A DNA stretch of 64,000 nt from Sedimentisphaerales bacterium (GCA_028281535.1 JANQJS010000063.1:1-64000), one strand, 5' to 3'. Counted from the stretch's first letter, positions 13,701-56,058 are shown. Made by a program: numbers and translations. Notes: generated by a model from the sequence alone, not told the origin.

Positions 13701-16490
13701 TAAGTTACCTGTGGTTGCGGTTACGTTACCAACGTCACCCGTATCTGCGGTACCACCATTATTAGCAGTAATCACAACACCACCAACACCACCGATTCCG
13801 GTGCTTGCTGTAATGTTGCCCACATCATCATTACCTTGAATGGTCACTGTACCACCAGTTGCATCAGAGGTGATGCTACCGGTTACACCTAAGGTTCCGA
13901 TAGAACCAAGAGCCGCACTTCCTTGTGCGTCAAATAAGATGTCACCAGCGACTGATGTACCGTCCGTTTGAATGGTAGCTGAAGAAGTTGAGTTTCCAAT
14001 GCTTTCACCTTGGAAGATCACATCACCACCATCATCGGTTGAAGCGACGGTAATACCAGCTAAAGTTAGGGCACCCAGTGCACCGTTGGTTGAACCAATG
14101 GTAATCGCACCGTTAACAGCAACACCTGTGTTGCTGATTAAGCCTGTTGCTGTGAAAGCAGCCATATCACCAGTACCCGTTCCGATACCGATGCTAATGT
14201 CACTATCATTGGTACCACTATTGGTAATAGCACCGGTTGTGGTTGTACCTGCGATACTACCGTTGGTTCCGGTGGTTACCAGGATGTCACCACCACCAGT
14301 ACCACTTGCGGTCAAAGCACCCAAGCTAACAGCACCGGTGAAACCTGTTGTACCACCATTAATGGTAGCTCCACCTGTTCCACTGGCTGTGATACCTGTG
14401 AAAGCTGTGCCACCGACAACACCAATACTGGTTCCGGCAGTCACGCTAAATGCACCTGTACTTGAAATGGTTAATAAACCATCAAGATCTAAAGTGCCAA
14501 TGGTTGTTGTAGAAGTCAGGCTGAAATCACCGCCACCAGACATGGTGTTTGCGGTGCTATCACCTAAGTCAACATTACCGATGACATTACCTTGAATGGT
14601 CACATCAGCATTGGCTGAGGTTGCCAGCATCAAGATAGAATCACCTAAGCTGAAGTTACCCATATCACCAGTGGTTGTACCAATGGTGACTGAACCAACT
14701 ACGTCAGCTTCTTGATCAATGTCAGTTGTAATCGTCACGGTACTTGAGAAATCACCAGTACCTGTTGGAGCAATAGTAATATCTGCATCACCTGATGAAT
14801 CCATATCGATGTCAGCAATAACAACAGCACCAGCGAATCCACCATTGGTGGTTGTACCCACTGTAATGTTACCAGAACCAGAACCGCTTGTGGTAATGGC
14901 ACCCAGTGTCACAGCACCGGTATAACCCGTTGTACCACCATCAATCAAGATATCACCAGACCCCGCAGAGGTAATGGCTGGGACGTTACCGCCACCAATC
15001 ACACCGATTGAGGTTGTTGCATCAATGGTAATTCCACCAGCGGAACTTGCTGCGGTTTGTAATGCTGCGGTTGAATCAATCGTACCAATCGTGGTACCTT
15101 GAATGATAACGTCACCTGTTGCGTTGGTACCATTGATTGTAATACCAGCAAGAGAAACGTTACCTAAAGCAGCACCGCTGTTACCAAATGTCATGGTACC
15201 AGGAGCGTTAACTGCAGTATTTTGAATTAAGCCAGCCGTAAAAGTCCCCATGGCACCCGTACCAGCCGTTGCAATGGTCAAGTCAGCATCAACGGTTGCA
15301 CTATTGGTCACAGTACCAACCGTTAAATTACCCATGCTACCATTTGTAGATGTTGTAATACTAATATCACCACCACCACTCTGAATGATGTTACCTGTTC
15401 CAACCGTGCTGCCGAAACCAGAATCACCACCATTGAAGGTGAAGTTACCAGTGCTACTTAATGTAAGACCACCGAATCCAAGGGCACCCGTCACACCATC
15501 ATCGGTTGCGCCGGTATCAACATCAATTGAGATATTACCAGCACCACCAACGGTCGTTAAACCAGCAACATCCCATGCACCACCGACACCTTCGGTCGTG
15601 ACTGTGAAGTTACCAGCAGCGGTCGTGATGACACCTTCCATATCAAGTGAAGCAATACCTGAACCTGCATCATTGTCAAAAGTCCAAGTGATACCGTTGG
15701 CACCAGGTAAAATATCACCATGCCAATCGATCGCACCAATTTGACCAGCGTCAATTAACGAATCGGTTGAAGTACCACCAATCAGGTCAACATCACCGTC
15801 GGTTGACGTCACGGTACCAATTGCACCTGTACCATTTGTGACGATGTGAGTTTCTACCGTCAGGCCAGTAAAGTTAGTAGCACCAAAGGTAATGTTACCA
15901 ATGGCCTGGTTGGCTGAACCGGTGTACGTCTCACCTGTATTGGCAGGAGCGGCTGAAATATTGGCACCAGCTGAGGTGAAGACAGTCGCCGTATCAGAAA
16001 GACCGTCAACGGTAAAGTCTTGATCATCATCACCAGCAGCATCTTCCGTTGTCGTAATACCAGTACCAATGATCAGATCAAGCTCAGTTGTACCGGCATC
16101 CAAACCACTCAGGTCGATGTTTGCAATATTTAAGTTAGTTACAAGGAAAATGGTCGCCGCACCAGCACCGCCAGTATCCTGAACGGTAATATTCAGCGTA
16201 AATGTATCCGTCGCACCACCATCGCTTAAGTCAGCGACCGTAACACTGTCGATACCCGTACTGGTTGCACCCAGAGCGATAAAACCGTCAGTAGCATTAA
16301 AGGTATTGTCGCCGGTGACATCGTATGCAGTATAATCACCGGGATTCAACACCACTGCAGCAGGAGCAATACGTTCTTCCAGTTCTTCAACTTTCAGACG
16401 CTGCTGATACTGCTGAATGCGATTGGCAAGCAGGGCAGATTTGGAATACCTGCTCGCGTTTCTAAATAATTTGCGAAGCCCATTGGCCAT
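7701..16490 (-). CDS. Giant (2929 aa) Gly/Thr/Ala/Ser/Ile/Asp/Asn-rich repetitive surface or secreted protein, probably a parallel beta-helix / adhesin-like repeat protein. There is no N-terminal signal peptide.
   Basis: Single uninterrupted ORF with a GGAGA RBS 7 nt before the ATG. It carries hundreds of short degenerate repeats of the type ITATTGNIGSIDAGGNITAA. The N-terminus MANGLRKLFRNASRYSKSALLANRIQQYQQRLKVEELEERIAPAAVV is charged and not Sec-like. Strong codon bias creates many spurious antisense ORFs. Confidence 0.85.
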   Translation of the reverse strand: MANGLRKLFRNASRYSKSALLANRIQQYQQRLKVEELEERIAPAAVVLNPGDYTAYDVTGDNTFNATDGFIALGATSTGIDSVTVADLSDGGATDTFTLNITVQDTGGAGAATIFLVTNLNIANIDLSGLDAGTTELDLIIGTGITTTEDAAGDDDQDFTVDGLSDTATVFTSAGANISAAPANTGETYTGSANQAIGNITFGATNFTGLTVETHIVTNGTGAIGTVTSTDGDVDLIGGTSTDSLIDAGQIGAIDWHGDILPGANGITWTFDNDAGSGIASLDMEGVITTAAGNFTVTTEGVGGAWDVAGLTTVGGAGNISIDVDTGATDDGVTGALGFGGLTLSSTGNFTFNGGDSGFGSTVGTGNIIQSGGGDISITTSTNGSMGNLTVGTVTNSATVDADLTIATAGTGAMGTFTAGLIQNTAVNAPGTMTFGNSGAALGNVSLAGITINGTNATGDVIIQGTTIGTIDSTAALQTAASSAGGITIDATTSIGVIGGGNVPAITSAGSGDILIDGGTTGYTGAVTLGAITTSGSGSGNITVGTTTNGGFAGAVVIADIDMDSSGDADITIAPTGTGDFSSTVTITTDIDQEADVVGSVTIGTTTGDMGNFSLGDSILMLATSANADVTIQGNVIGNVDLGDSTANTMSGGGDFSLTSTTTIGTLDLDGLLTISSTGAFSVTAGTSIGVVGGTAFTGITASGTGGATINGGTTGFTGAVSLGALTASGTGGGDILVTTGTNGSIAGTTTTGAITNSGTNDSDISIGIGTGTGDMAAFTATGLISNTGVAVNGAITIGSTNGALGALTLAGITVASTDDGGDVIFQGESIGNSTSSATIQTDGTSVAGDILFDAQGSAALGSIGTLGVTGSITSDATGGTVTIQGNDDVGNITASTGIGGVGGVVITANNGGTADTGDVGNVTATTGNLGDTTGTLVVTGASIGNIGASAGGILSGASFTANKGTGNGTIGTVTAATTTIDGSVVSDGNIGAVSAATDITGTIQSTGGAIASITSTNGDITSAATISADSITGAITVDADESGTSKGNIAAAISTNTGNIGSIDAGGNITAAITSAGSIGAITADGNLAAAITAATGFTGAIQIDDGILAAGSLVATTGNFASTIDIDTVGLAGTVQAITGNFTGLFTIDAGGVAATGVFKADAGDIDGGLTVTAGGIASGATISAGTDIDGAITATAGDIAANITAGTNIDGNIVATAGLISGTVTATSGNLTANVTAGTGDITSVVVGGNITAGTISAEDDVLSVAVTGSITGGAITADSDSDSSGNVTSVVAGGGINSTITGQNIDLVRSGGAVGDDINGTITADADIDLIDAGAASVDAAVTASAATSSSPLATFIHDGVSYAVWAFETGSTTTVDTGVTANVVFDGNANGGSPQIDITSLADSTTGTTPDIYITSKQETGAAQQFNDTDVDVNAAPILVNTFTATSSVTVGSIIFEGSGALGSFTNVTFSAVTVEGGVSGTVAPAVGETLEFGSTSGALTINVTGGGLMGDLILRGNLGGNLTINGSAGDILIGSSGLGAGGNINDGADITATGTIADIIVNGNANGSITATSIGNVNIAGNLGNAMTANEAITASTGDITSVFVGGSIGADAAQSTTITSTNGSVGSVTAVGNIGAGNGTTSITANTNITSVTSLNGTLGDGATDLTVTATTGTIGTVAGVAVDADVTAEGNITAVNATGDATGAGIGAGGSTTITSSSGNIGTVSSIDTPIAGTITATIGNIDTVTVTDGADANTTLTGANSATITAGGDVDNVAGATITGNTTATLGTTSSPVTTWAVNGATYLFDATAGPIYNYVFNGAGKTIAITIDNWDNAGSAALAASADISLTTTDTDADGTTTILDGAGFGLTNLDFDADSVTNDTNDLGTVLVEGNVTGSGINLGPDGTLVSLIVEGDVTVPVITTNVSLFSAGSVLGIDNPTAANMTSAFLHPNAGTVTIGVPADGDYIVPVGPASTGGDISVTHGDGAGAFITPIELEAGGGVNAFELEVTGGVITEISQEDNAIVTGAVTINGDLTYVIEGHDIAAFTVTGAITSTGGLNAYDIDSITVGTDGTFTGTGNDMAGTIQIFNDAGVAGSTGSTGAVDIAGSLTGSIIAATNIGAVTIGNSVTNVDGTVTQIGSFTGLLSAGGNIGTVTAQVNVGGSGLIQAGGTLGAITATTGDVTADILTGGTVGAITGNDFSGDWLFGVAAGATGVTINDRSDSLDTTPRVYTVTPGAVAVIDIDADTGLDANGLTVDQLIIFADSDTVSATASDGAPVSVDEILLLQEDGDGFGVTVSGTLGNIVAADNATALDSNTLAANFLAASNADEGTAFTADVIDDTAPTALDAEIGDDQNTDLTVSINADTAGNIIASGNVSVTADIDSLGYVVSLNGSVSGTVHTATSFGSIASSLDWSGTWESEGTGAVGGDIDNATISAAYGAAVAAGIPSWFTGGVLVEAGDVSSTLDFRTVAPTVVIDGLGTPEPTGTATGTIYVLAGDIAGDFDIFGDFGGLQVPIGSENIGNMTVAGFISRMIVPNAGGAITGLSDVDVNIGLKAIDGETIVSENNPFSQDSISVEVSGGAAGIIDNNDSTDYIIEQLDIVGLDDAGAEVDIVGDVTEINIWGDWAGDLSIEGTTSSNNDSDPPVLGDVDLINVREFGTDDGDIDGSTADLTANNFGDLFTDGDINDPTDRITDSGTLSKTSSLQTVEYNGATTQSLYLKGSKNVSAAWSSIFGKVTDIDVTSTTGKGSAALAAAGGTVDEAGFKTIMKASKNGVVGSNGANVGHVDVHGKLKVKNLIVEGSLDSVETTSALRGVAIAGDADLIKAESLQKGFVGGNVDYLSSGRIRNFDVLGNVMNFNASSISNVFVQGTTNSLFIAGNATNSQFLGSVSDATIFGRFSSSSINGEVITDRTEVI

Positions 16491-25115: not shown

Positions 25116-25148
25116 ATAAAAGTAAGCAGGAACATAGCCCCGCTTACT
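25113..25148 (-). terminator. Hairpin terminator between convergent lpxI and rtcB
   Basis: AGTAAGC...GCTTACT stem, followed by TTTTATTT on the minus strand immediately after the rtcB stop. Confidence 0.55.
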
Positions 25149-26545
25149 CAATCTTCGGGACGTTCGCCAGCAGGGGCCATTTTTACGATCCTTGGATCGA
25201 AGCGTGCGATAGGGTCTACCAGATCGGATTGGGATTTCATGACCATGTCGATATCTTTGTAGGCCATGGGTACTTCGTCTAATCCGGCGGACATTAATTT
25301 GACATTTCGTTCATCCAAGAATTTTTTGGCTTCGTGCCAAGTAAAGTTTTCTTTGGCTTTTTTACGGCTCATTTTTCGTCCTGCACCATGTGATGCGGAA
25401 TTCAATGAGGCTTCATTCCCCTTGCCTCGTACAATGTAGCCGCTTGTGCCCATTGACCCTGGGATAATACCCAACACGCCATCGCCGGCAGGTGTAGCAC
25501 CTTTACGATGCACGATCAGTTCTTTGCCATCATGGATTTCTTTCCAGGCGAAGTTGTGATGGTTTTCGATATCCAGTAACACATCGACGCCTAAATTTTT
25601 GGCGATATGTTTATGGATCAATGCATGGTTTGCCGCGGCATACTGGCCCATTAGCTCCATAGCCTGCCAATATTCCTGACCATCAGCAGAATCCAAATCT
25701 AACCATGCCAAATGCATCAAATCTTTGGGTAGCTCTGGATGTTTTTGGATCGCCAATTTACTATAATGATCGGCAATAGCCGCGCCGGTTCCACGGCTGC
25801 CGCTATGGCTTAACAGTGCCAGGTAGGTTCCTGCTTCAAGGCCAAGGTCATCCTTCTCTAAAGTCAATTCGCCATACTCAACAAAGTGATTACCACTGCC
25901 ACTGGTGCCTAATTGACTCCAGGCTTTGTCTTTGAGGTTGCGCGTTAAATCGGTAAACGTCCAATCGTCATCCATGACATCATGCTGGCGACGTTTTTTG
26001 AAACTGGCACCGATGCCAAAACGTGTCTCGGTTTCGATAGCGTTTTCCAGTTTACCGGTTTGGCCTTCCAAAGCAGACAGCGGCATATCCAAGACCGTCA
26101 TTTTCATGCGGCAGGCAATATCAACACCAACGGCAAATGGAATCACCGCATTGTCGGTTCCCAATACCCCTCCAATCGGTAAACCATAACCCACATGCGC
26201 ATCAGGCATCAATGCACCAGCAACAGAGACAGGTAATTTGCATGCATTTTCCATCTGTTCGATGGATTGCGGTTCAAAATCGCCGCCCCACTGCTGGTAG
26301 GGTGCTGGCTCTGTGCGATGTTCATAACGCGCACGAGCCTCAACTGAAGCAAGTAAAACGTTTGCTAACGGTGCAAAGATCTTATCATTTTTATATTGCT
26401 CAGGATTTTCTGCTAAGCTACGAATGGTATGGCGAACCTGAGCTTTTGGCAATCGCTCCTTACCTGCAGCCGCGACAACCTCGCGTGCTACAACCATAAC
26501 GTTACCTTTAGGAATGCCTAAATTTAATAATTCACGTGTTTTCAT
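25148..26545 (-). CDS. rtcB: RNA-splicing ligase RtcB
   Basis: 465 aa with conserved RtcB blocks (metal-binding His/Cys positions; C-terminal ...ASHGAGRKMSRKKAKE). Confidence 0.9.
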   Translation of the reverse strand: MKTRELLNLGIPKGNVMVVAREVVAAAGKERLPKAQVRHTIRSLAENPEQYKNDKIFAPLANVLLASVEARARYEHRTEPAPYQQWGGDFEPQSIEQMENACKLPVSVAGALMPDAHVGYGLPIGGVLGTDNAVIPFAVGVDIACRMKMTVLDMPLSALEGQTGKLENAIETETRFGIGASFKKRRQHDVMDDDWTFTDLTRNLKDKAWSQLGTSGSGNHFVEYGELTLEKDDLGLEAGTYLALLSHSGSRGTGAAIADHYSKLAIQKHPELPKDLMHLAWLDLDSADGQEYWQAMELMGQYAAANHALIHKHIAKNLGVDVLLDIENHHNFAWKEIHDGKELIVHRKGATPAGDGVLGIIPGSMGTSGYIVRGKGNEASLNSASHGAGRKMSRKKAKENFTWHEAKKFLDERNVKLMSAGLDEVPMAYKDIDMVMKSQSDLVDPIARFDPRIVKMAPAGERPED

Positions 26546-26664
26546 TTGATTTCCTATTCTATACTAATTCTGACCTTTTAAAAATACTAAATGCATGGAT
26601 TCCTGTGCGTTCGGCGATGCTCAGTGCAGGCTCTTCGCAAGGTTGTCAAACGGCCGACCTTTCT

Positions 26665-27684
26665 TTATTTTGAGAATTTCACCTCAAATATGTTTTTACT
26701 TATGTGTTTCACATCGATAGTTACATCAAGAAACTTTTTAATCACCTCAATATTTGTTAGACTATGTTGTGTTAATGCAACGGTTCGAAAGACGCCTTCG
26801 CCAGCTAATGCTAACGGCAGCAATAATTGATCAGATAAGTATGGCCCTACCGGAACACTTTGATCTAAATACTCTTTTATTTCATCGATCACAGGATAAA
26901 GCACTTTCGGTATCGAAACATTTTTCTGACCGAAAGCAGTAAATATTTCTGTCAGTAATTCGCTAGCGATCTCGAAGGTAATGACATTACCCGGACCTGG
27001 CGAATTATCAAATTCATGTACCTGTAGCTCCTGACCAAACCACCCAAGTTTATCACGTACTTTTTTTAGTTCCTTTTCGGCAATTTCAACGGGTAATTGT
27101 GCAACGCTTGCAGTTGCCAGCTTTGCTGTGATTTTACCACGATCCAATAGCTCAAGGCCTGAAAGCTTCTTTACGGGCTTGACATTTACTAGTAGTTGTC
27201 CACCACCTGCTGGTGCAAAACCAGGTGCAAGCAATTTAGTTTCGATTGTTGAGCCCATTTGATTGATCAAAGGAATATAGGCTTTCTCTAGAAATTCATA
27301 AGGTGGCGCATATGGATTATGCGTACCACCTTCTAACGAAATCGTCGATTCACCTTCTGCCAAAAGCAGTGCAGGTAAAACCGTTTGCAATACCAATGTT
27401 GTACTACCCGCCGTACCAATCGCAAAGTGGAATTTGCCGGCATATAAACCGCTTGGTTTAAACAGCAAACGCTGCGAGCCAATCGCATTACCTTCAACCT
27501 TTGCACACCCCACATCAACTGCGGCATTCACTGCCGTCAAATGTTGTCGCATTAAACCGGGCTTAGGCCGACCGGAACGAATGTTGATAATCTCAAAAGG
27601 CTGCTGAGTTATCAAAGATAACGCCAGCGAACTACGTAATATCTGTCCGCCGCCTTCACCAAAAGATCCATCTATTTGTATCAT
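26665..27684 (-). CDS. rtcA: RNA 3'-terminal phosphate cyclase RtcA
   Basis: 339 aa. The N-terminus MIQIDGSFGEGGGQILRSSLALSLI is typical of RtcA, and the gene overlaps the upstream gene by 4 nt. Confidence 0.9.
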   Translation of the reverse strand: MIQIDGSFGEGGGQILRSSLALSLITQQPFEIINIRSGRPKPGLMRQHLTAVNAAVDVGCAKVEGNAIGSQRLLFKPSGLYAGKFHFAIGTAGSTTLVLQTVLPALLLAEGESTISLEGGTHNPYAPPYEFLEKAYIPLINQMGSTIETKLLAPGFAPAGGGQLLVNVKPVKKLSGLELLDRGKITAKLATASVAQLPVEIAEKELKKVRDKLGWFGQELQVHEFDNSPGPGNVITFEIASELLTEIFTAFGQKNVSIPKVLYPVIDEIKEYLDQSVPVGPYLSDQLLLPLALAGEGVFRTVALTQHSLTNIEVIKKFLDVTIDVKHISKNIFEVKFSK

Positions 27685-28226
27685 TGTTTCATCTCGATTA
27701 ATTGATTAAATATCCTGGTGATATTTCGTGCATCATCGATCCCTCGATGGTGCGTACCTTCCAGGTTCATTTTTAAAAGTTTCAATGCCTGGCCCATACC
27801 TAATCGCGTGACTCTCATGACATCAGAAAATAATTGTTTGATGTTCAAATGTTCACCTTGATAAGGCTCAATACCATGCAGTTTGCAATCACGTTTTAAT
27901 TGACGCAAATCATAACCACCCCAAGAAGCTAACATAAATGGGCCATCTTGATATGCCCAATTCATAAATGCATTAAAGCTCTCAATAAAGCCAGGAGCTT
28001 TATCCACCTGGGATTGTGTGATCGTTGTCAATTGTTTACAAAAATCTGAAAGCTCTGGATTCAACTTCGGTTTTATAAACGTTTGAAACTCATCAGACAA
28101 AATCTGCCCATGACGGTAACGCACCGCACCGATCTCGATAATCTCGCTGGTATAAGTATCTTTATCTTGCCAGCAAGTTGCTTCAAGATCAACGATAATA
28201 AATTGTTTATGTTTTAAATCTTCCAT
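27681..28226 (-). CDS. DEDDh-family 3'-5' exonuclease (DnaQ/ERI-1-like), first gene of the rtcA-rtcB operon
   Basis: 181 aa. Exo I motif FIIVDLEAT (D,E), Exo II WGGYD, Exo III HHRGIDDA (the H of DEDDh). The stop overlaps the rtcA start. Confidence 0.75.
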   Translation of the reverse strand: MEDLKHKQFIIVDLEATCWQDKDTYTSEIIEIGAVRYRHGQILSDEFQTFIKPKLNPELSDFCKQLTTITQSQVDKAPGFIESFNAFMNWAYQDGPFMLASWGGYDLRQLKRDCKLHGIEPYQGEHLNIKQLFSDVMRVTRLGMGQALKLLKMNLEGTHHRGIDDARNITRIFNQLIEMKQ

Positions 28227-28272
28227 GATATTCTCTTTTTCTATTTTAAATTAATTTTCCTTATATTTAAAG

Positions 28273-28288
28273 TGAACAGAAGGTGCCA
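28273..28288 (-). promoter_or_regulatory. Sigma-54-like -24/-12 element upstream of the exonuclease-rtcA-rtcB operon (the -24 is perfect, the -12 is weak); it overlaps a 13-bp perfect palindrome GTGCCAAAGGCAC at 28283-28295
   Basis: The minus strand reads TGGCAC-CTTCT-GTTCA, about 60 nt upstream of the exonuclease ATG. The GC of the -12 element is replaced by TC. Confidence 0.35.
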
Positions 28289-28421
28289 AAGGCACTTTTT
28301 AACGACGCGACCTTTTATTCAGTAACCCGCTCCCGTTGTTCGCTACTTTGTTCCTAGTTTTCTATTCCATTTTGGCCTTTGACAGACAAAGCTGTCACAC
28401 AATTATCCACAATACAACGAA

Positions 28422-28496
28422 TAGCCCTGATAGGATTCGAACCTACAACCATCGGTTTCTAAAACCGGCGCCTCTTGCCAATCGGGCTACAGAGCC
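28422..28496 (-). tRNA. tRNA-like gene of 75 nt that folds as a class-I cloverleaf with apparent anticodon UAG. This is anomalous, because bacterial tRNA-Leu is class II. CCA is not encoded.
   Basis: Manual fold of GGCTCTG-TA-GCC..-D loop-..GGC-G-CCGGT-TTTAGAA-ACCGA-TGGTT-GTAGG-TTCGAAT-CCTAT-CAGGGCT-A. The acceptor has 5 Watson-Crick pairs plus 2 G-U pairs, and the T-loop GGTTCGAATCC is canonical. Confidence 0.5.
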
Positions 28497-28627
28497 AAAA
28501 TGATTAAAAATACTGCCGCGAGTTAACGTGGGTAACCTTTCACGCACCTCACGGCAGCCATGTGAGGTATCATTATCTCTCTAAACATTTGCGACCACCC
28601 GACATCCCTTCCTGGTCGCGTATTGTT

Positions 28628-28667
28628 AAAAAATTATATGATGGGAAGGTAAGGGTGGCACCTTCCC
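28628..28667 (-). terminator. Rho-independent terminator after the SPFH gene
   Basis: GGGAAGG...CCTTCCC hairpin followed by ATAATTTTTT on the minus strand. Confidence 0.6.
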
Positions 28668-28686
28668 ATCGTGCGGAATCAACCTT

Positions 28687-38362: not shown

Positions 38363-39247
38363 CTAAGCGGGTTGGCGTTTTTCCTCTGAACTTGAATTAT
38401 CGCCCTTCACTTCCATATCCTTTTTCGAAAAATGCATTTCAGACGGTGGAGAATCCTGACGCTTGGCACCACGCACCAGAAAGTGAAGAATGTGGCTACG
38501 CAATTCAACATATTCTTTCGAATCGATGAGCTCTTCACGTGAGCGTGGACGAGGAATATTCACTTCAACAATCTCAGCCAGCTCCGCATCAGGGCCATTG
38601 GTCATGAGTGCAATTCGATCCGATAGTAAGATCGCTTCATCCACATCATGGGTCACCATAAAAACCGTACTTTTGGTCGCATTCCACATACGCACCAATT
38701 CTTCTTGAATGGCCCCGCGAGTCAAGGCGTCAATCTGGGCAAACGGTTCATCCAGTAATAGAATTTTGGGTTCAACGGCAAAAGCACGTGCCAAGCCGAC
38801 ACGCTGTCGCATACCGCCAGAAAGAAAAGCGGGCTTTTTAGATTCGGCACCACCCAGGCTCATCATATCGATATATTTTTGAGTCCAATCTTTAATACGA
38901 TCAGGACTCCAATCAGGATGAGCGGATTTTACCGCCACCCTGACATTTTCAAAAGTACTGAGCCAGGGCATCAACGCAAAACTCTGGAAGACCACCATAC
39001 GATCAAGCCCAGGTTTAGTAATAAGATTGCCATCCAGTATGACACCACCATTGCTGGGCTCATCAAACCCAGCCATGATATTTAATAAGGTACTCTTACC
39101 ACAACCGGAATGACCAATCATGGTTAAAAATTCACCTTGTTGAATCTCAAAGTTTACTTCTTTAAAAACCGTAAAGGTTTGCCCTTTATCGGGACCATCC
39201 AAAACAGGAAACGTTTTGGACACATGATCAACTTTTAAAAATGACAC
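38363..39247 (-). CDS. ABC transporter ATP-binding protein of the nitrate/sulfonate/cyanate (NrtD/CynD-like) family
   Basis: 294 aa with Walker A GHSGCGKST, signature LSGGMRQRVGLARA and Walker B LLLDEPF. Confidence 0.85.
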   Translation of the reverse strand: MSFLKVDHVSKTFPVLDGPDKGQTFTVFKEVNFEIQQGEFLTMIGHSGCGKSTLLNIMAGFDEPSNGGVILDGNLITKPGLDRMVVFQSFALMPWLSTFENVRVAVKSAHPDWSPDRIKDWTQKYIDMMSLGGAESKKPAFLSGGMRQRVGLARAFAVEPKILLLDEPFAQIDALTRGAIQEELVRMWNATKSTVFMVTHDVDEAILLSDRIALMTNGPDAELAEIVEVNIPRPRSREELIDSKEYVELRSHILHFLVRGAKRQDSPPSEMHFSKKDMEVKGDNSSSEEKRQPA

Positions 39248-39276
39248 CCTATACTCTCCTAACTATAAGTCTTGGA

Positions 39277-39744
39277 TTACCATTTACGGTATGGCAGGAA
39301 TTTTCCATCGTAGGTAATCACAACACGATCGCCTTTGGGGTCTTCTTTTTTACTAATATCAATTTCAAAATCAATGGCACTCATGATGCCATCGCCAAAT
39401 TTTTCATGAATCACAGCCTTCATGGTTGTGCCATAGACCTGGGTGATTTCATGAAAACGATAAATCAATGGATCGGCAACCACGGCATCATCCAGGCTTC
39501 CTTTAAGCGGACAGATTTGCAAAATCTCAGCAACTTCATCCCCTAAACCAAGAAATTCAACTAACGCTTTCGCATTATCTTCTAACATACTATTTTGACC
39601 AAAAATGACGGATGTAACCCAAACTTCATGACCACCCACCGCTTCGGCAATCTCAGCAAAGGTCACGCCTTTTTCTTTTTTGGCTTGTAAAATCAACTCT
39701 GTAGCTTTTTCATGTGTGATACAAGAAAGTGTTTCTGATGACAT
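39277..39744 (-). CDS. cynS: Cyanate hydratase (cyanase) CynS
   Basis: 155 aa, collinear with E. coli CynS (...FAEIA...YRFHEITQVYGTTMKAVIHEKFGDGIMSAIDF...ITYDGKFLPY). Confidence 0.85.
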   Translation of the reverse strand: MSSETLSCITHEKATELILQAKKEKGVTFAEIAEAVGGHEVWVTSVIFGQNSMLEDNAKALVEFLGLGDEVAEILQICPLKGSLDDAVVADPLIYRFHEITQVYGTTMKAVIHEKFGDGIMSAIDFEIDISKKEDPKGDRVVITYDGKFLPYRKW

Positions 39745-39774
39745 TGATTTCTCCTTACTATTTCTAATTAATTC

Positions 39775-40674
39775 TTACATTTCTGGGTAGGTCACCAATT
39801 TGGCCACTCGGCTGAACGCATAATCGAGTACCACACCTACAACCCCAACAACAATAATCGCAAAAATAACCCCGCTAATATCAAGGTTATTCCATTCAAT
39901 CCAACTTAAATAACCAATCCCCAGTTCACCCAACAACATTTCTGCTGGAACCACGGCCACCAGGGCACTGCCAAACGAAATACGCAGCCCAGCAACAATC
40001 GCAGGAGCAGCAGCAGGCAAAACAACTTTAAAAAGCCGACGAAAATATCCCATCTCCAAAAGACTGGCCACGCGCAAATAATCTTTTCGCATCGTGCTGA
40101 CACCGAACGCTGTGTTTGCAACGGTCGGCCACAATGACGCCATAAAGACAACTAATATGGCTGTCCACGTTGGATCCTGAACGCTATACAAAAGTAGCGG
40201 CATCCAAGCCAATGGCGAAATGGGTTTCAGTGTTTGTATAAATGGGTTCAACGCCAGGAATAATTTTTTATTCAATCCAATGATGACACCTAATACCACA
40301 GCAAAAATAGATGCGGCTAGAAAACCAATCGCAAAACGCTTTACGGTATACCATACCAAATGACCAATACCATGATCGTTGGTACCCTTTTTGTGAAAGA
40401 TCTCTTTTAGTTCCGATTTTGTTTTATCGAAAACTTTAGCAGGTCCAGGAATGCCAATCGGTTTATCAGGATTATAAATATAATTGCCAGCGTCATCCTG
40501 TATGATGTCACCATTAAATTCCATGGTCATGAGTTCATTCTCGGATAATCCTGTCGAATCAAAGTCCGGCTGCTGGGTCAACCCATGCCAAACCAATATA
40601 AACACCAGGAAAAATCCCAGCGACATAAACACAGGCCCATAATCGAAACTTTTAATCTTATCAACTAGTGACAT
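39775..40674 (-). CDS. ABC transporter permease (NrtB/CynB-like)
   Basis: 299-aa multi-TM protein with an ABC-2 permease signature region (PLAWMPLL...ALWPTVANTAFG). Confidence 0.8.
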   Translation of the reverse strand: MSLVDKIKSFDYGPVFMSLGFFLVFILVWHGLTQQPDFDSTGLSENELMTMEFNGDIIQDDAGNYIYNPDKPIGIPGPAKVFDKTKSELKEIFHKKGTNDHGIGHLVWYTVKRFAIGFLAASIFAVVLGVIIGLNKKLFLALNPFIQTLKPISPLAWMPLLLYSVQDPTWTAILVVFMASLWPTVANTAFGVSTMRKDYLRVASLLEMGYFRRLFKVVLPAAAPAIVAGLRISFGSALVAVVPAEMLLGELGIGYLSWIEWNNLDISGVIFAIIVVGVVGVVLDYAFSRVAKLVTYPEM

Positions 40675-40690
40675 TACAACCCCTCGATCA

Positions 40691-42124
40691 TTAATTTAAA
40701 TTATTAATTGGGAAACTATTCATATATTCTTCAGGTTTTTTCGGATCGAACTCTTTACCCATAATCACATGTTTACGATAGGTTTTTCCATTCTTACTGT
40801 AACCAAGTTCTTCGATAAGTTCATCACACTCGCTAGCAAGATAGACTTTTTCAGCCACTTTGTGATAATCAAATTCACCTTCAACATGTTTCCAACGTTT
40901 CATCTGGGTCAGAATCCAAACCGCCATGGAGTGCCATGGGAATGGATCAAAATCAATACGATCAGGTACATTCTGAATGCCACCCAAACCATCCGCAAAT
41001 TTACCTGTCAGAACTTGCTGCAAGACAATCTCCGGTTGATTCAAATAATTCTTAGGAGCAATCGCCTTTGCAATCGCTTTTCGATTCTTTGGATCTGAAG
41101 AATAATGAGTCGCATCGACAATGGATTTGAACAAGGCCAGGAAAGTATTTGGATATGTTTTCGTAAACTCTTCCGAGATCGCAAATGCACAACATGGATG
41201 ACCATCCCATATTTCTTTTGTTAACTTATAGATAAATCCAACATTTTCATATATCGCACGCTGGTTAAATGGATCGGGTGCCAAATAACCATCCACATTT
41301 TCTGCTTTCAGGTTAGCAACCATCTCTGGTGGAGGCACAACACGAATTTGAACATCTTTATCAGGATGCACGCCGCCTTCTGCCAGATAATAACGCAGCA
41401 GGTAATTATGCATGGAATACCTAAAGGGAACACAAAAACGAAACCCCTTCATATCCTTTGGACCTTTAACGCCTTTGTGTTTTTTGTGAAGCGTGATTGC
41501 TTGACCATTAATATTTTCAACCGCAGGCATAAAGAAAGGAACCTTCTTAGAGCCAGCCCCCAATGAAATCGATAGTGGCATCGGACTAAGCATATGTGCG
41601 GCATCCACATCTTTGTTAATGGCCCAGTCTCTGACCATCGCCCAACCAGACGCACGCCGCACTTTGGCATTTAAGCCATGCTTTTTGTAAAAGCCCATGG
41701 GCTCAGCCATGATAATCGGCGTGGCACAAGTAATAGGTATAAACCCAATTGATAAGTCCTTCTTCTCAATATTTTTAACCGGATCTGCTGCCAAACTCTT
41801 AGCCATGTCCATCGGAAAGAAACTAGCAATCATGGCTGCGGCAGCACCTTTACCTACCGTACTGATAAATTTACGACGATGAATCGGATTAGGAAAAATG
41901 GCATTCATCACTGCATTTTCAACAACCTGATCCATAATCTCTTCTGTATTGGGACCCGATTGAGAAGACGCTTTTTCAGCAACACTTTCATGCTCACAAC
42001 TTTCATTATGCACATGATCTTTTGTACATTTGCTATGGTCATGCGAAAATTCCAGTCCTTTAAAGTCACTGGATTGATGCGATTCAAAATCTTTTTTAAC
42101 TTCTTTATCGTGACAGTCAGACAT
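40691..42124 (-). CDS. ABC transporter periplasmic substrate-binding protein (NrtA/CynA-like) with a twin-arginine signal. The annotated start adds a ~60-aa His/Cys/Asp-rich N-terminal extension, and an internal start is possible.
   Basis: 477 aa. HRRKFISTVGKGAAAAMIASFF is a Tat-type motif, but it starts only at residue ~80. The upstream stretch MSDCHDKEVKKDFESHQSSDFKGLEFSHDHSKCTKDHVHNESCEHE resembles a metal-binding tail. A GGAGG RBS precedes the first ATG. Confidence 0.75.
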   Translation of the reverse strand: MSDCHDKEVKKDFESHQSSDFKGLEFSHDHSKCTKDHVHNESCEHESVAEKASSQSGPNTEEIMDQVVENAVMNAIFPNPIHRRKFISTVGKGAAAAMIASFFPMDMAKSLAADPVKNIEKKDLSIGFIPITCATPIIMAEPMGFYKKHGLNAKVRRASGWAMVRDWAINKDVDAAHMLSPMPLSISLGAGSKKVPFFMPAVENINGQAITLHKKHKGVKGPKDMKGFRFCVPFRYSMHNYLLRYYLAEGGVHPDKDVQIRVVPPPEMVANLKAENVDGYLAPDPFNQRAIYENVGFIYKLTKEIWDGHPCCAFAISEEFTKTYPNTFLALFKSIVDATHYSSDPKNRKAIAKAIAPKNYLNQPEIVLQQVLTGKFADGLGGIQNVPDRIDFDPFPWHSMAVWILTQMKRWKHVEGEFDYHKVAEKVYLASECDELIEELGYSKNGKTYRKHVIMGKEFDPKKPEEYMNSFPINNLN

Positions 42125-42185
42125 GTTTATCCTCCAAGATATAATTTTAATGGTAGGTATTTAACTAATAATCTAACTAGCTCGT

Positions 42186-42201
42186 TGCAAATGAAGTGCC
42201 A
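42186..42201 (-). promoter_or_regulatory. Consensus sigma-54 promoter (TGGCAC-N5-TTGCA) for the cynA-like/cynB-like/cynS/ATPase operon
   Basis: The minus strand reads TGGCAC TTCAT TTGCA, about 60 nt upstream of the ATG at 42124. Confidence 0.7.
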
Positions 42202-42395
42202 AAAGAAAATAATTTTGGACAGACCAAATCCGCGATTTTTGATTTATGTATAACGGCCAATAGTTTAAGAAGTTAATTATTAGTTAAAAAAAATTCAGGT
42301 GATAAGATGAGTAAATTTTCATCCTACATAAATGGAGTTGTTTATACACTATCACTACTAAACGGTATTGTTTTGAACGTTCTTCTAAAGGCGAT

Positions 42396-42971
42396 TTATT
42401 TTCGTTTTGCAGCATCAACAGAATACGTTGGATCTGCTCCATCCCAATTGACATCTCCACTTGGCCCATAAATCGCCGGAACATGCGAATCACTTAATCG
42501 CAAATACAATTGCATTTGCGTTCTGTGATGCGCGGTATGTAAAACGCGTCGCCAGAAAATCCAAATACGCTCTCGCTCTAAACCGAAAAAAGGTTGTTCT
42601 TCATGCCACCACGCATGATTAGCATTCGCAAGCTGAGGTAATCGATGATGTATTTGTTCTAAATATTTTTCAATATAGTTTTTTACTTCAGGTTTCTCAA
42701 CTTGCGGCAATAACGTCTCTACGTCCATTTCTTGGGTACCTACAAATTGAGCAAAGAAACGTCTTTCGCTTAATAATTGATGCTTCATGATGGTTTGTAT
42801 GTCATTAGACTTTTCATGCGGCTTAAATCCCAAGAGGGAATTTGGCACTGTTCGCCAAATAGAAACCACTTTATTTGCTTCACTGACATAGGTGTCTATA
42901 AGATATTGGTATTGGCTATCTACTGCCTGCGGTATTTGTTTTTCGGCAATAGCGATATAATCATACTGCAT
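42396..42971 (-). CDS. DinB/YfiT-like (DinB_2) four-helix-bundle metal-dependent protein
   Basis: 191 aa with His-containing helices (HQLLSERRF...HAWWHEEQ...HTAHHRTQ). Confidence 0.5.
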   Translation of the reverse strand: MQYDYIAIAEKQIPQAVDSQYQYLIDTYVSEANKVVSIWRTVPNSLLGFKPHEKSNDIQTIMKHQLLSERRFFAQFVGTQEMDVETLLPQVEKPEVKNYIEKYLEQIHHRLPQLANANHAWWHEEQPFFGLERERIWIFWRRVLHTAHHRTQMQLYLRLSDSHVPAIYGPSGDVNWDGADPTYSVDAAKRK

Positions 42972-45430: not shown

Positions 45431-47023
45431 TTATAGACAATTCGCGACATCGGGTTCAGTACAATCAGCCCATTCACCTGCGAAAAGTGAGAAATCTAAC
45501 AGATTCACATAACAATCGAAGTTAAGGTCGTTGGTAATGAATGGAAATTCACCACATTCATCTTCAATCATACTCACTTCAACTTCAGGAACAGGGTTGT
45601 AAGCATTCGGATCAACATCGCCTGAAGATGCGCCAGTAATAAATGGATCCACAAATTCTAAGAATTCTTCATCTGGAATCGCTTTAATGGACACCGTTTG
45701 TGGCACACTCCAGTTGCCTGAATTAAAGGTTAAGGTTTCAGGATCTAGTTCTGAAACAGCATTTTCATCGGTTAATGTAATAACATTATCGCTACCAATT
45801 GGTGGACGATTTAAAACATAGGCTACACTCGCGATTGTTCCATTTGGATCCAATTCGTTTATTTCTAATCCTTCATCAGAAATCACAAAAACACAGCCAA
45901 CTTCGTCATCAATCACTGTTACCAAATCAGCTTCATTCTGTGTAGCTCCATTCAAATCTACATTTGCGTTTGGATCACTTAAACTAACAGAGAAGTTAAT
46001 TGAAAACAGTTCAACACAATTAACGTTAGGTTCAATTTCGACATCATCATTCACTTCAACGGTAACCACTTTAGGTGTATTCCAGTTGCTATCATCAAAC
46101 GTCAATGTGATTGATTCACCAAACCCGCCACTGTTCATTTTAAAATCAGCAGTATCATTAGGATCTGGGGAAATCGTTATTGTCGCAATGGCGCCATTAA
46201 GTGATCCGAGATTTTCATTAGGATCGGTATTCATCTGAACCGTAAATGTATCTGTCACAAGTGGCGTTGCTTCTGAAACAGAGACACCATCGCCAGCATC
46301 AACAACAACAGGAGGTTTTTCAAGTGGTGGAGGAAATTCACCTTCAAAATAAATAACATCGACAATGACTTGATCAATCATTATATCGTCAACAACACCT
46401 TCAAGTCCGATCAAAATATTGGCACATTCAGAGATAGCCGCTTCGGAAGTTGTTATCAAATGAACCGCCGTTGTAAAAAACCCATCGCCATGATCAACTT
46501 CATCTAGAAGCTCGATCGAATCCTCAGCTAACAAAGAAACATTCCCAGTTCCAGCTCCTTCAATAATACCTAAGGCACAAAATTCTTCTTCAATCGTATT
46601 AGAATTTGTCGCTTCCATAAAAACGGCAAAAACATCTTCATTAAGATATTGGGCATTCCATGTGATTTGAAAAACAACAGAAGCACGTTCGCCTTCTTTG
46701 GCCAGGTTCGAAGACAGGAATACTGCAGCACCATTGGTGACGCCAACACCGCTGCGACTATCAGCCGTTACAGCAGTATCACCAGGGCCAATAATACCGT
46801 AGCCCGTGAGAACTTCAGCTTCTTCATCAATCAACGTTTGAGACAATGTGACAACATCAGCCTCTAATGTATCAATGGCAGCCTGGGTATCATAATTCCA
46901 AATCACTCGATAAGAACGACCTGTTGACAAAAAAGCAGGTTCAATAACATCCTCTGCTAATGCGAGATTTGCTGTGCTGACAGTTAATAATGATGCCAGC
47001 AGCAACGACCATATCTTTTTCAT
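45431..47023 (-). CDS. Secreted protein with a dockerin-like C-terminal segment (paralog 2). The likely start is the internal ATG at 47021-47023 (MKKIWSLLLASLL...); the six-frame ORF extends to 47221.
   Basis: The signal peptide begins at the internal Met, which is preceded by a GGAG RBS. The C-terminus EDECGEFPFITNDLNFDCYVNLLDFSLFAGEWADCTEPD parallels paralog 1. Confidence 0.65.
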   Translation of the reverse strand: MKKIWSLLLASLLTVSTANLALAEDVIEPAFLSTGRSYRVIWNYDTQAAIDTLEADVVTLSQTLIDEEAEVLTGYGIIGPGDTAVTADSRSGVGVTNGAAVFLSSNLAKEGERASVVFQITWNAQYLNEDVFAVFMEATNSNTIEEEFCALGIIEGAGTGNVSLLAEDSIELLDEVDHGDGFFTTAVHLITTSEAAISECANILIGLEGVVDDIMIDQVIVDVIYFEGEFPPPLEKPPVVVDAGDGVSVSEATPLVTDTFTVQMNTDPNENLGSLNGAIATITISPDPNDTADFKMNSGGFGESITLTFDDSNWNTPKVVTVEVNDDVEIEPNVNCVELFSINFSVSLSDPNANVDLNGATQNEADLVTVIDDEVGCVFVISDEGLEINELDPNGTIASVAYVLNRPPIGSDNVITLTDENAVSELDPETLTFNSGNWSVPQTVSIKAIPDEEFLEFVDPFITGASSGDVDPNAYNPVPEVEVSMIEDECGEFPFITNDLNFDCYVNLLDFSLFAGEWADCTEPDVANCL

Positions 47024-47507
47024 AGTAATTTCTCCATGACCTGTAAATAAAATTTTCTCCGCTCTCCTGATTGTTACAGGAACCAACCAGACAGAGAATC
47101 TTAACACACCATTTAAAGTGTCAAGACGTACCAAAAAACATAAACAACACACACACATTAGTCTTGTTTCGTCATTTACCTTACGAACTCTACTCTTTGG
47201 AAAATTCCGACCTATACACACTAGTTTTTAATAGGCTTAAGAATATTTCTCCAAGTCTCCGATTTATCTAAAGCATGCTCTGCCAGGCAAAATTAGTGTG
47301 TTGCCCGACAGAGCACTAAAACTCTATGCAAACTAGTTATTCCTTATTCATATCAAACATGAACACCTTTTAAAGGATGTGACATGACGTCCATATCACA
47401 TCCTAGTAAGTAATGTATCTAAATTCATAGATACGAAGTGTGAACCAATTATATGGCAGAACTCTGAATGAACAGAGCCCTGCCGTCGTGTAGAAATATA
47501 TATCCAT

Positions 47508-52699: not shown

Positions 52700-54430
52700 T
52701 TACTCTCTAGCAAGAGAATGCATCTCCTTTATTTCTTTTTCGCTTAAAAGTCGATCATAAAATGCAATTTCATCTAAGTTACCACTAAAGGAATCCTTCC
52801 TGTCAACAGAGCGAGTTTCAATTAGATCCACATAATGTTGCCCCACATACATGATATCCCAAGCCAATAAATCACCCATTAGCCTAAAGGATTTACGCCG
52901 ACTTTCTTCACTATCTATATACATAACTAAATCGCCCTTCGCATCAACAGTCACAACAACAAAATACCATTGGTCTGGATTTAATCGCTGTTGACTAGTA
53001 ATCGAAAACTCAAGGTTTCTTTTCAAAGGAAATTTTTTAACTGAATATTTATCATACACCAAAAAGATCAAATAACCCGTCGTATCAACAAATAATTCTG
53101 CTGATGACATACTATTAATCTGGTCATGTAGCCTTGTCGATAATATAGGTAGACTGTCTCCAACATTATCTGAGTCATACTTCATCCAAAAAGAAAAACT
53201 ATAAACATTCCCAAGTGGCTTCTCAATTTTCTGTGAAACCAAATAACTTTTGTTGTCACGAAGCCTCATTGAATTTTTGAGATTTTTGGCATAAACCGAT
53301 GACTCCACCGATTCAGTTGATGCAACACCAACAATTTCACCATCAAAGGTTTCAGATAAGGGCTGATTAAATGAATAATATTTGATGGGATCTGTTTGAT
53401 GAATATATTGTTCATATTGGCCTGGAGCTGAGTTTGAGACCTGGAAGAAATCTGATGAGAATGTATTTCGAAAACGTTTAACATCCATAACAAGATGTTT
53501 CATTTCTAAACCATCTTTATCGATAGCCATAGCAGCCCCCGCTTTGACCGTCGTGTATCTCCCATCGATAGCATGGATAGGCATCACACCGACTTCTCCT
53601 TCAAAGACATGAACTTCACTATCTCCGTTGCCATCGACACTCACACAAAATCCTGTTCCATAATCAATAATCGATGAGCTAGGCGTATTCACCATAAATC
53701 CCGTCTCGTCATCGTCGCCATAAACATGAGCACTGATCTCACCTTCCTGTAAAAAAGTATTTGTAGGCGATTCAATAACAAATGTAGAAGGTCCCTGAAC
53801 AACCATTTTCGCCATTTGTTTAAATTCAATTTCTATCAACCCACTCAGCAGTTGATATTCCTGCCCTTCCACAATATGATCTGGTTCAAATTCCCATTTA
53901 GCATCAGAAGAATTGATAATCGATACTACAGACAGTCTAGTAAGCTGGTCAGTAAAGACCCAAAGACTGATACCAACGAATAAACAAGCCGCTAACGCAA
54001 CCATTTTTATCTTGTAGTTGGATAAATTAAAGGAACTCTCCTTTGTCCGCTCTTTAGAAGCAGGAGGCTCTGCAATAGAACGATCTTCATTATCCAAATA
54101 ATTTTTCAGTTGAGACAATGCCGTCTTTTCGATCTCTTGACGTTTTTTATCAAGAAGCTTTTCTTCTTCCAAAGCTTCCAGCTGTTCATTCAAAGCAATG
54201 TGATCACGGAAGACCTTTTCAATGGCTTCAGTCGAATCTTCACTTAGCGATACTTGACCATAAGGTGAAAGCTCAGCTGCCAAATCAACAAAACGCTGAT
54301 ACTCCAAAAGGCTCTCAGGTTCATCTGCCATCAACTGATTAAGACGAATTAACTGCTCTTGAGTAATGACACCATCATAAGCTAAAAGCAATAATTCATT
54401 TAATTCAAGTTTCTTTTTATCCAATGACAT
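52700..54430 (-). CDS. FecR-type anti-sigma factor with a C-terminal LamG/concanavalin-like domain
   Basis: 576 aa. It has an N-terminal anti-sigma region, a TM helix (MVALAACLFVGISLWVF), a FecR-like beta domain, and a C-terminal LamG signature (GNLDEIAFYDRLLS). It lies directly downstream of an ECF sigma gene. Confidence 0.75.
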   Translation of the reverse strand: MSLDKKKLELNELLLLAYDGVITQEQLIRLNQLMADEPESLLEYQRFVDLAAELSPYGQVSLSEDSTEAIEKVFRDHIALNEQLEALEEEKLLDKKRQEIEKTALSQLKNYLDNEDRSIAEPPASKERTKESSFNLSNYKIKMVALAACLFVGISLWVFTDQLTRLSVVSIINSSDAKWEFEPDHIVEGQEYQLLSGLIEIEFKQMAKMVVQGPSTFVIESPTNTFLQEGEISAHVYGDDDETGFMVNTPSSSIIDYGTGFCVSVDGNGDSEVHVFEGEVGVMPIHAIDGRYTTVKAGAAMAIDKDGLEMKHLVMDVKRFRNTFSSDFFQVSNSAPGQYEQYIHQTDPIKYYSFNQPLSETFDGEIVGVASTESVESSVYAKNLKNSMRLRDNKSYLVSQKIEKPLGNVYSFSFWMKYDSDNVGDSLPILSTRLHDQINSMSSAELFVDTTGYLIFLVYDKYSVKKFPLKRNLEFSITSQQRLNPDQWYFVVVTVDAKGDLVMYIDSEESRRKSFRLMGDLLAWDIMYVGQHYVDLIETRSVDRKDSFSGNLDEIAFYDRLLSEKEIKEMHSLARE

Positions 54431-54436
54431 AGTAAC

Positions 54437-54991
54437 CTACCGCTCTTCTACCACTAATTTTTTTGCAATGCACTCTTGCAATTGAGTATGAATGCGAGCC
54501 ATAACTTTGTACATCCCCTGAACCGATCGATTCAATCGAATGGCGATTTCTTTTATTGCAATCGATTGATCATATCGCATCTGAATCAATTCTTTGTCAT
54601 TCGCGCTTAACTTTTTGAGGCATCCCTGCACCGCATCAATTTTGTCCTGCTGCGTGGAATGCTGGTCAACCGGAAGATCAGCTAATTTCTCAAAAACAGC
54701 ATCTTCAAATCGTATGGCAGCTTTTTTCTGTTGCTGACGAAATTTCAAGACACGAAAACGAGCGATCTGCATACCCCAGGCTAAAAAATTGGTTCCAGCC
54801 TCAAATCGATCAAACATGCGCCACATCGCCGTGATGGTCTGTTGCATAATATCTTCTGCATCTGCACGATTAGGCACGAGTGTCAATATATATGCAAAAA
54901 TCCGTTTCTGATTTGCAACAAAAAGTGTCAAAAACTGCTCATTCACGGATACTGATTCGGAATGATCAAATTGTTTGGGTTGATGATTCAA
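54437..54991 (-). CDS. ECF-type sigma-70 family RNA polymerase sigma factor
   Basis: 184 aa with sigma-2 and sigma-4 regions (DAEDIMQQTITAMWR...; ...LIQMRYDQSIAIKEIAIRLNRSVQGMYKVMARI). Confidence 0.85.
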   Translation of the reverse strand: MNHQPKQFDHSESVSVNEQFLTLFVANQKRIFAYILTLVPNRADAEDIMQQTITAMWRMFDRFEAGTNFLAWGMQIARFRVLKFRQQQKKAAIRFEDAVFEKLADLPVDQHSTQQDKIDAVQGCLKKLSANDKELIQMRYDQSIAIKEIAIRLNRSVQGMYKVMARIHTQLQECIAKKLVVEER

Positions 54992-55602: not shown

Positions 55603-56058
55603 TTAACCTTGCTCGACCGTGATGCTCTCGAAAAACTCCTTCGCATCTGGACACCCCCACAACTTTTCCCGAATCTCTGGATTGGTCATGATTCGACTGA
55701 TCCTGGCAAGGGCCTGTATGTGCGGCCCTGTCTGATCGATAGGCGAAACCAGTAGCACGACAATTTTTACAGGTTGCTTATCGATGCTATTAAAATCGAT
55801 CTCATTTTCCAACCGGCCAACAGCCATGACTAACTTTTTGACGGCACTACACTTACCATGCGGAATGGCAAACCCCTGCCCAATACCGGTGCTGCGAATT
55901 GCTTCACGCTCCATAACTGCTCGCTTGGCGATTTCAGGATTGGTCAATTTTCCCTGCTGATCAAGTGTATCAATTAACTCGGAGATCGCCTCGCCCTTTT
56001 CCTGGGCTTTCATAGGAACCACCACACAGCTAAGATCAAGAATTTCAGTAAGTTGCAT
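55603..56058 (-). CDS. ptsN: PTS EIIA-Ntr nitrogen-regulatory protein PtsN
   Basis: 151 aa with the EIIA(Fru/Ntr) fold sequence. The phosphorylatable His lies in GIGQGFAIPHGK. Confidence 0.75.
   Translation of the reverse strand: MQLTEILDLSCVVVPMKAQEKGEAISELIDTLDQQGKLTNPEIAKRAVMEREAIRSTGIGQGFAIPHGKCSAVKKLVMAVGRLENEIDFNSIDKQPVKIVVLLVSPIDQTGPHIQALARISRIMTNPEIREKLWGCPDAKEFFESITVEQG

Follow-up and report, generated by a model that had tools for sequence, protein, structure and literature searches.

A putative cyanate-utilisation operon with an internal cyanase gene and a predicted sigma-54 promoter in a Sedimentisphaerales bacterium

Bacterial gene clusters that pair an NrtA-family ATP-binding cassette (ABC) transporter with a cyanase have been described under several kinds of control, and here we compare with them a putative cyanate-utilisation operon, cynA-cynB-cynS-cynD, found in a 64,000-nucleotide (nt) stretch of DNA from a Sedimentisphaerales bacterium (GCA_028281535.1 JANQJS010000063.1:1-64000; G+C about 41%; hereafter the window). 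In Pseudomonas pseudoalcaligenes (oleovorans) CECT5344, sigma-54 control of cynABDS through CynF has been established experimentally: cyanate induces the operon and ammonium represses it, a putative RpoN site lies upstream of cynA, and the divergently encoded, sigma-54-dependent CynF is essential for expression, even under nitrogen limitation (PMC6627978). Basal cyanase activity under nitrogen starvation is also reported for this organism, and similar clusters have been noted in other alpha-, beta- and gammaproteobacteria (PMC6627978). Cyanobacteria such as Synechococcus elongatus PCC 7942, marine Synechococcus and Prochlorococcus take up and assimilate cyanate with a CynABD transporter and CynS, and the E. 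coli cynR/cynTSX system uses a major facilitator superfamily permease, CynX, a carbonic anhydrase, CynT, and the LysR-type regulator CynR (PMC6627978). The genes of the window operon and its predicted promoter are given below, with positions counted from the first letter of the window.

42124-40691, minus strand: cynA, 477 aa; periplasmic substrate-binding protein of the NrtA/CmpA family (Pfam NMT1_2, E 7e-81)
40674-39775, minus strand: cynB, 299 aa; ABC transporter permease (Pfam BPD_transp_1; NCBIfam ntrB at 171 bits, below the cutoff of 209)
39744-39277, minus strand: cynS, 155 aa; cyanase (cyanate hydratase), between the permease and ATPase genes (Pfam CYNS_N and Cyanate_lyase)
39247-38363, minus strand: cynD, 294 aa, GTG start; ABC transporter ATPase (Pfam ABC_tran; NCBIfam TIGR01184 ntrCD at 308.7 bits, cutoff 291.8)
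42201-42186, minus strand: predicted sigma-54 (-24/-12) promoter TGGCACttcatTTGCA, an exact TGGCAC-N5-TTGCA with GG at 42200-42199 and GC at 42188-42187

Like cynFABDS of Pseudomonas, the window joins an NrtA-family ABC transporter and a cyanase in one unit, with a predicted sigma-54 promoter upstream of cynA; the cynFABDS layout itself was also met in our survey at Halomonadaceae and alphaproteobacterial loci (L040, L044, L064, L069-L071 and others). The window differs in that cynS stands between cynB and cynD and not last, in the lack of a divergent cynF and in its planctomycete host, and it does not carry the triple TACGA-N4-TCGTA boxes of the proteobacterial loci; its binding protein shares no more than about 55-60% identity with those of Proteobacteria. 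With the cyanobacterial operon it shares the combination of CynABD and CynS, whereas cynS there is last or separate. To our knowledge cyanobacteria lack sigma-54, and nitrogen control in these organisms is exerted by NtcA at sigma-70-type promoters. The likeness to E. coli is confined to the cyanase, which belongs to the same family and keeps the aligned active-site positions; none of CynX, CynT and CynR is present at the window operon. The binding protein, permease and ATPase are of the same families as those of NrtABCD and CmpABCD, yet an ATPase of the NrtC/CmpC type, with its fused regulatory binding domain, is missing, and CynA represents a distinct and highly conserved subfamily whose genes always accompany cynS. 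A sequence-only reading of this stretch had proposed a mode of control different from that of E. coli CynR and from the cyanobacterial mode, and in this it is upheld. The novelty that it implied does not stand, as sigma-54/CynF control, a third mode that it had not considered, was already established in Pseudomonas (PMC6627978) and the promoter element proved widespread in our survey. The window operon is very likely a planctomycete example of this established sigma-54 control of cynABDS, in which the gene order is peculiar to its clade and the activator is encoded elsewhere.

The four genes span 42124-38363 on the minus strand and are tightly packed, with gaps of 16, 30 and 29 nt between cynA and cynB, cynB and cynS, and cynS and cynD, respectively. 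Each is preceded by a Shine-Dalgarno sequence (GGAGG for cynA, GAGGGG for cynB, AAGGAG for cynS and AGGAG for cynD), and no internal terminator is predicted within the operon. The cynS product scores 189 bits against NCBIfam cynS (cutoff 113) and 209 against PRK02866 (cutoff 150). Its alignment with E. coli CynS (1DW9) has an E value of 2e-39, and R96, E99 and S122, which we take from the 1DW9 structure to be the catalytic residues, have conserved counterparts in the window protein. The Pfam and NCBIfam matches thus bear out the order of substrate-binding protein, permease, cynS and ATPase, all on the minus strand, that had been read from the sequence, and together with the 16-30 nt gaps they support its placing of a cyanase gene inside an operon for an NrtABD-family ABC transporter. 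CynA has a twin-arginine motif, RRKF, at residues 83-86, which is preceded by an N-terminal extension. This long extension (residues 1-83; window 41876-42124) contains many His and Cys residues, HDHSKCTKDHVHNESCEHE; most relatives begin it with a conserved L-x-DPFDP-x2-SL-x-H, a motif that the window protein lacks (alignment A1). Metal binding or an unusual n-region for twin-arginine translocation (Tat) are possibilities for this segment.

The promoter element TGGCACttcatTTGCA matches the TGGCAC-N5-TTGCW consensus at all 11 specified bases, with GG and GC exactly 10 nt apart. It lies within an intergenic gap of 271 nt and reads in the sense direction, 77 nt ahead of the cynA ATG (42124) and about 50 nt upstream of the strong cynA ribosome-binding site, which confirms the perfect TGGCAC-N5-TTGCA that the earlier reading had placed at the right distance. 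It is the sole exact match on either strand of the 64 kb, the mean in shuffled windows being 0.10. Transcription would start near 42176 and produce a leader of about 50 nt. A structured leader RNA or riboswitch was considered and rejected: the 69-nt leader folds no better than shuffled sequences (z -0.96), and Rfam matches in the window are confined to tRNAs, with none in this region.

How general is this promoter? At 83 orthologous loci from about ten bacterial lineages, the 500 nt preceding the first cluster gene were scanned with the pattern TGGCAY-N5-TTGCW, allowing up to two mismatches but requiring GG and GC, and the rate in the rest of the loci served as background. A sense-strand -24/-12 element is present at 47 of the 83 loci, where the background rate would give 2.8; on the antisense strand of this region only 3 loci have one. 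The consensus of the sense-strand matches is TGGCACG-N4-TTGCT. The lineages that bear it include Phycisphaera and Pirellulaceae metagenome-assembled genomes (MAGs), Binatia, Tectomicrobia, Nitrospirales, Nitrospinota, Myxococcota and Alpha-, Beta- and Gammaproteobacteria, so that predicted sigma-54 promoters precede the cyn operon in many phyla. Among the four loci that share the A-B-S-D gene order of the window, the element is TGGCAGcgcgaTTGCA at 78 nt before the ATG in L087, TGGCACgtcgaTTGCG at about 102 nt in L003 and TGGTATttatcTTGCT at 90 nt in L082; L086 shows no more than a degenerate TGGTAT-N5-TTGTA. Orthologous clusters are preceded by this element much more often than chance would allow, and on this ground the -24/-12 element of the window is very likely a functional sigma-54 promoter. 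At one surveyed locus without a sigma-54 element (L084), a Response_reg-ANTAR (NasT-like) gene (4384-4974) lies directly upstream of cynA.

The genes behind this promoter belong to a module found in many phyla. CynA orthologues are 55-80% identical, with 70-80% across Planctomycetota, Verrucomicrobiota, Binatia, Myxococcota, Tectomicrobia and Nitrospirota and 55-62% to Proteobacteria. The permease, the ATPase and cynS are all present at 72 of the 80 genome loci that have such a binding protein (55-79% identical), and the remaining 8 are cut by contig ends; since it is linked to cynS at every uncut locus, we identify this family as the CynA of a cynABD-plus-cynS module. The commonest gene order is A-B-D-S, with variants S-A-B-D (for example L015, L017 and L020) and A-S-B-D (L004 and L005). 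The order in the window, A-B-S-D, departs from the canonical A-B-D-S and is common to L003, L082, L086 and L087. The closest genome locus for the cluster is that of a Phycisphaera sp. MAG (L003). LpxD encoded in the window finds its best named homologues in MAGs of Sedimentisphaerales, Phycisphaerae and Planctomycetota, at 63-69% identity, so that a planctomycete of the class Phycisphaerae is the most likely source. The five most similar CynS proteins come from A-B-S-D loci, namely the window's own contig (L001) and L003, L082, L086 and L087 (68-79% identical), and all four cyn genes have diverged to a similar degree in each of these four relatives. For these reasons we interpret the internal cynS as an old, clade-specific rearrangement of a known module, neither a recent insertion nor a new architecture. 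Two further arrangements were seen among close relatives: in L086 a 23S_rRNA_IVP gene (5213-5560) is inserted between cynS and cynD, and L085 (1836-4756) has a divergent activator gene and a second NMT1_2 binding protein.

The activators that accompany the module vary with lineage. A gene for a sigma-54 enhancer-binding protein adjoins the cluster at 21 orthologous loci, immediately upstream and mostly divergent. In Alpha- and Gammaproteobacteria these proteins have PAS domains as their sensory part, in Tectomicrobia and Thiobacillus they have GAF domains, and in Nitrospirales a short N-terminus in which Pfam recognises no sensory domain; all are one-component enhancer-binding proteins and none is an NtrC-type response regulator. 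At proteobacterial loci (L040, L044, L046, L064, L065, L069-L071, L073, L075, L078 and L081) three tandem TACGA-N4-TCGTA palindromes lie about 70-130 nt upstream of the -24 element, between the divergent PAS-type activator gene and the promoter. Derived here from the surveyed loci with PAS activators and not from the literature, these boxes are a clear candidate for the CynF operator; a term search of the available text of PMC6627978 gave no match to them. No such box occurs in 42202-42400 of the window at up to two mismatches, a result with which visual inspection agrees, and matches across the whole window are at chance level (22 versus 17.8). Four Nitrospirales loci (L010, L012, L013 and L014) have instead a triple GACAAA-N2-TGTC-like box (cGACAAAATTGTCg, gGACAAAGATGTCg, tGACAAAGATGCgc) about 85-135 nt upstream of -24; a conserved A/T-rich stretch, CAAACTTCAATAATATTCAATA, stands between it and TGGCAT-N5-TTGCT. 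Among these four, an activator gene is adjacent only in L013. The GACAAA-type boxes are absent from the upstream region of the window's cyn operon, where the following feature was found.

42329-42373, no strand assigned: weak candidate upstream activator sites, two 15-nt direct repeats 30 nt apart, AAACAATACCGTTTA and AAACAACTCCATTTA in the sense of the genes

These repeats lie about 130-170 nt upstream of the -24 element. Their core 8-mer TAAACAAC recurs in L087 at a nearly equal distance (-135 versus -139). The 8-mers shared upstream of the five A-B-S-D loci are mostly A/T-rich noise, from which TAAACAAC alone stands out, and the support that it gives is marginal; the repeats are a lead to activator sites and are offered only as such.

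Does the organism have sigma-54? The window encodes RtcR, a sigma-54-dependent activator (32107-33696, plus strand) with a Sigma54_activat domain, a Walker A motif and an intact GAFTGA motif. Divergent from rtcR and ahead of the rtc genes is a sigma-54-like element, TTTTGGCACagggaTTGTT (TGGCACagggaTTGTT), at 31947-31932 on the minus strand, which reads TGGCAC-N5-TTGTT and has GT instead of GC at -12. Given this activator and the element divergent from its gene, the organism very probably has sigma-54. RtcR, which is paired with rtcBA, is the only enhancer-binding protein in the window and is encoded 8.5 kb away.

Based on these observations, we propose with good confidence that the window carries a cyanate-utilisation operon, cynA-cynB-cynS-cynD, of a Phycisphaerae-type planctomycete, governed by a sigma-54 promoter 77 nt upstream and by an unlinked activator. 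How would such an operon work? The Tat-exported binding protein, the permease and the ATPase would import cyanate, and the cyanase would use bicarbonate to turn it into ammonium and CO2, which would serve both nitrogen assimilation and detoxification. Transcription would begin at the sigma-54 promoter, which would stay silent until an enhancer-binding protein, bound upstream and hydrolysing ATP, remodels the closed complex; expression would therefore be expected to be tightly off by default and to be switched on through the activator. That activator would sense cyanate, nitrogen limitation or both, and it must be unlinked, because it is not encoded next to the operon. The sequences themselves show what the genes are, how closely they are packed, the exact promoter motif with its conservation at orthologous loci, and RtcR as a sigma-54-dependent activator in this stretch; that the transporter is specific for cyanate and that the promoter is active in vivo, like the start of transcription, the nature of the activator and its signal, are inferred.

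Several points weigh against the proposal. No gene for an enhancer-binding protein is adjacent to the operon in the window, rpoN is not found in the 64 kb, and a search of 42150-42420 with a 6-nt seed returned no inverted repeats; of the inverted repeats that the sequence-only reading had suggested looking for at 42205-42395 none was found, and the weak direct repeat is what the region offers. About 40% of the orthologous loci have no recognisable -24/-12 element, and at least one has an ANTAR regulator instead, so sigma-54 control is common in the family and not universal. The cyanate specificity of the transporter would follow from gene linkage and family membership, and in Pseudomonas CynABD is not the sole route of cyanate uptake (PMC6627978).

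On the side of regulation, two other explanations must be considered. The -24/-12 match could be fortuitous, and the operon might instead be transcribed from a promoter of sigma-70 type, from one specific to planctomycetes, or by read-through out of the DinB-family gene upstream. No terminator is predicted after that gene, the strand of the operon also carries a weak sigma-70-like site at 42305-42276 (TTATCA-18-AATAAT, matching at 9 of 12 positions), and at least one exact match to the sigma-54 element appeared somewhere in 9 of 100 window shuffles. However, the motif stands in the right intergenic region, orientation and distance, for which we estimate a chance of about 2e-4 in the 271 nt; it is also enriched at the orthologous loci, with the nearest relatives carrying it at 78-102 nt from the ATG. 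Sigma-70 as the main driver was rejected, since sigma-70-like matches in the region number 13 against 15.5 in shuffles and the sole upstream candidate is weak. We consider a chance match very improbable. The second explanation accepts the promoter and takes the activator to be NtrC, the general nitrogen regulator, which would place the operon in the Ntr regulon and make it respond to nitrogen limitation and not to cyanate. The sequence-only reading had spoken of NtrC-family or nitrogen-status control. In favour of NtrC, neither the window nor any of its four closest relatives (L003, L082, L086 and L087) has a gene for a dedicated activator beside the operon, the Pseudomonas operon is repressed by ammonium and shows the basal activity mentioned above, and a PtsN-like EIIA(Ntr) gene at 55603-56058 hints at nitrogen-related regulation in the organism. 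However, the activators linked to the cyn operon are of the one-component PAS, GAF or short-N-terminus types and never receiver-domain NtrC, neither an NtrC gene nor an NtrC-type palindrome was identified in the window, and CynF of Pseudomonas is essential even when nitrogen is limiting (PMC6627978). Control by NtrC thus seems rather unlikely, although it deserves to be kept in mind.

A different objection concerns the substrate, for the transporter might mainly import nitrate and nitrite or bicarbonate, as NrtABD and CmpABD do, with cynS a passenger that detoxifies cyanate formed inside the cell. The matching family models take their names from nitrate transport (ntrCD scores above its cutoff, ntrB below), and the nearest solved relatives of CynA, the NrtA-like C-terminal domains of NrtC/CmpC followed by CmpA (2I48) and NrtA (2G29), are PDB entries that bind nitrate or bicarbonate. 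Substrate ranges also overlap, in that cyanobacterial CynABD transports nitrite as well and nitrate/nitrite transporters of Pseudomonas can take up cyanate (PMC6627978). Against this stand the linkage of the binding-protein family to cynS at every uncut locus in many phyla and the absence of nitrate or nitrite reductase genes flanking the cluster in the window. Moreover, several loci (L002, L005 and L006) have a second NrtA-like transporter nearby that is only about 30% identical, which suggests a separate role for the CynA transporter. A nitrate or bicarbonate importer with a passenger cyanase therefore appears improbable, and import of cyanate by the products of cynA, cynB and cynD is the reading that we prefer.

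The operon is flanked by two genes on the same strand. Upstream of cynA, across the 271-nt gap, is the DinB-family gene (42971-42396, minus strand). A homologue of its product, 59% identical, is encoded directly downstream of cynS in a Pirellulaceae MAG (L007 9961-10524), and a functional link between the DinB-family gene and the cyn operon may exist in Planctomycetota. Downstream of cynD is a DUF1801 gene (38305-37835, minus strand), which was rejected as a fifth member of the operon: it lacks a Shine-Dalgarno sequence, a TTGCAC-17-TATAAT of its own ends 6 nt before the ATG, and it is not conserved beside the cluster at any other locus. Because of this promoter-like sequence and the missing Shine-Dalgarno, it is probably a separate, leaderless transcription unit. 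A hairpin at 37816-37833, GGGCGGATACGTCCGCCC, has a T-run on the plus strand only, where it would terminate a glycosyltransferase gene.

Elsewhere in the window, 25148-33696 is an RNA-repair locus under the control of RtcR, with tRNA genes inside it. After the rtc element, on the minus strand, come a 117-aa open reading frame (ORF) without a Pfam match and tRNAs at 30876-30803 and at 30529-30457, the latter probably followed at once by a third; next are a Band_7/SPFH gene, a tRNA at 28496-28422 and the genes for an RNase_T exonuclease, RtcA and RtcB. In its layout the locus is reminiscent of the rsr-yrlBA-rtcBA arrangement of Salmonella with its tRNA-like RNAs. The PtsN-like gene on the minus strand is a stand-alone PTS_EIIA_2 gene that is not beside rpoN and has a TPR/PMT_2 protein as its upstream neighbour. 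Two minus-strand ORFs without a Pfam match are very large or look secreted (2929 aa at 7701-16490 and 596 aa at 45431-47221), and an ECF sigma / FecR-LamG pair lies at 52700-54991.

What does the locus mean for the control of cyanate use? In aquatic and sediment communities cyanate is known to serve as a source of nitrogen and as a substrate for cross-feeding, and the locus adds a Sedimentisphaerales/Phycisphaerae-type planctomycete to the organisms equipped for its import and use, with tight, activator-gated expression from sigma-54 as the prediction. The general view of cyanate regulation is left unchanged, because the CynF system of Pseudomonas had already set the principle. More tentatively, and with more doubt than confidence, we envisage sigma-54 control of cyanate uptake and cyanase as an ancient feature shared across phyla, in which the promoter was retained while activators and their boxes were swapped repeatedly; the A-B-S-D clade, with the window, would then use an unlinked activator. 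The sets exchanged may include PAS activators with TACGA-N4-TCGTA in Proteobacteria, GACAAA-type boxes in Nitrospirales and GAF activators in Tectomicrobia, and the activator of the A-B-S-D clade would possibly act through the AAACAAY-N3/4-RTTTA repeats at 42329-42373. If this is true, that activator would be a new sensor of cyanate or nitrogen in Planctomycetota. The comparative result is the more useful one: a conserved sigma-54 promoter combined with lineage-specific activators and upstream boxes provides a set of natural variants in which the rewiring of one promoter to different sensors can be studied.

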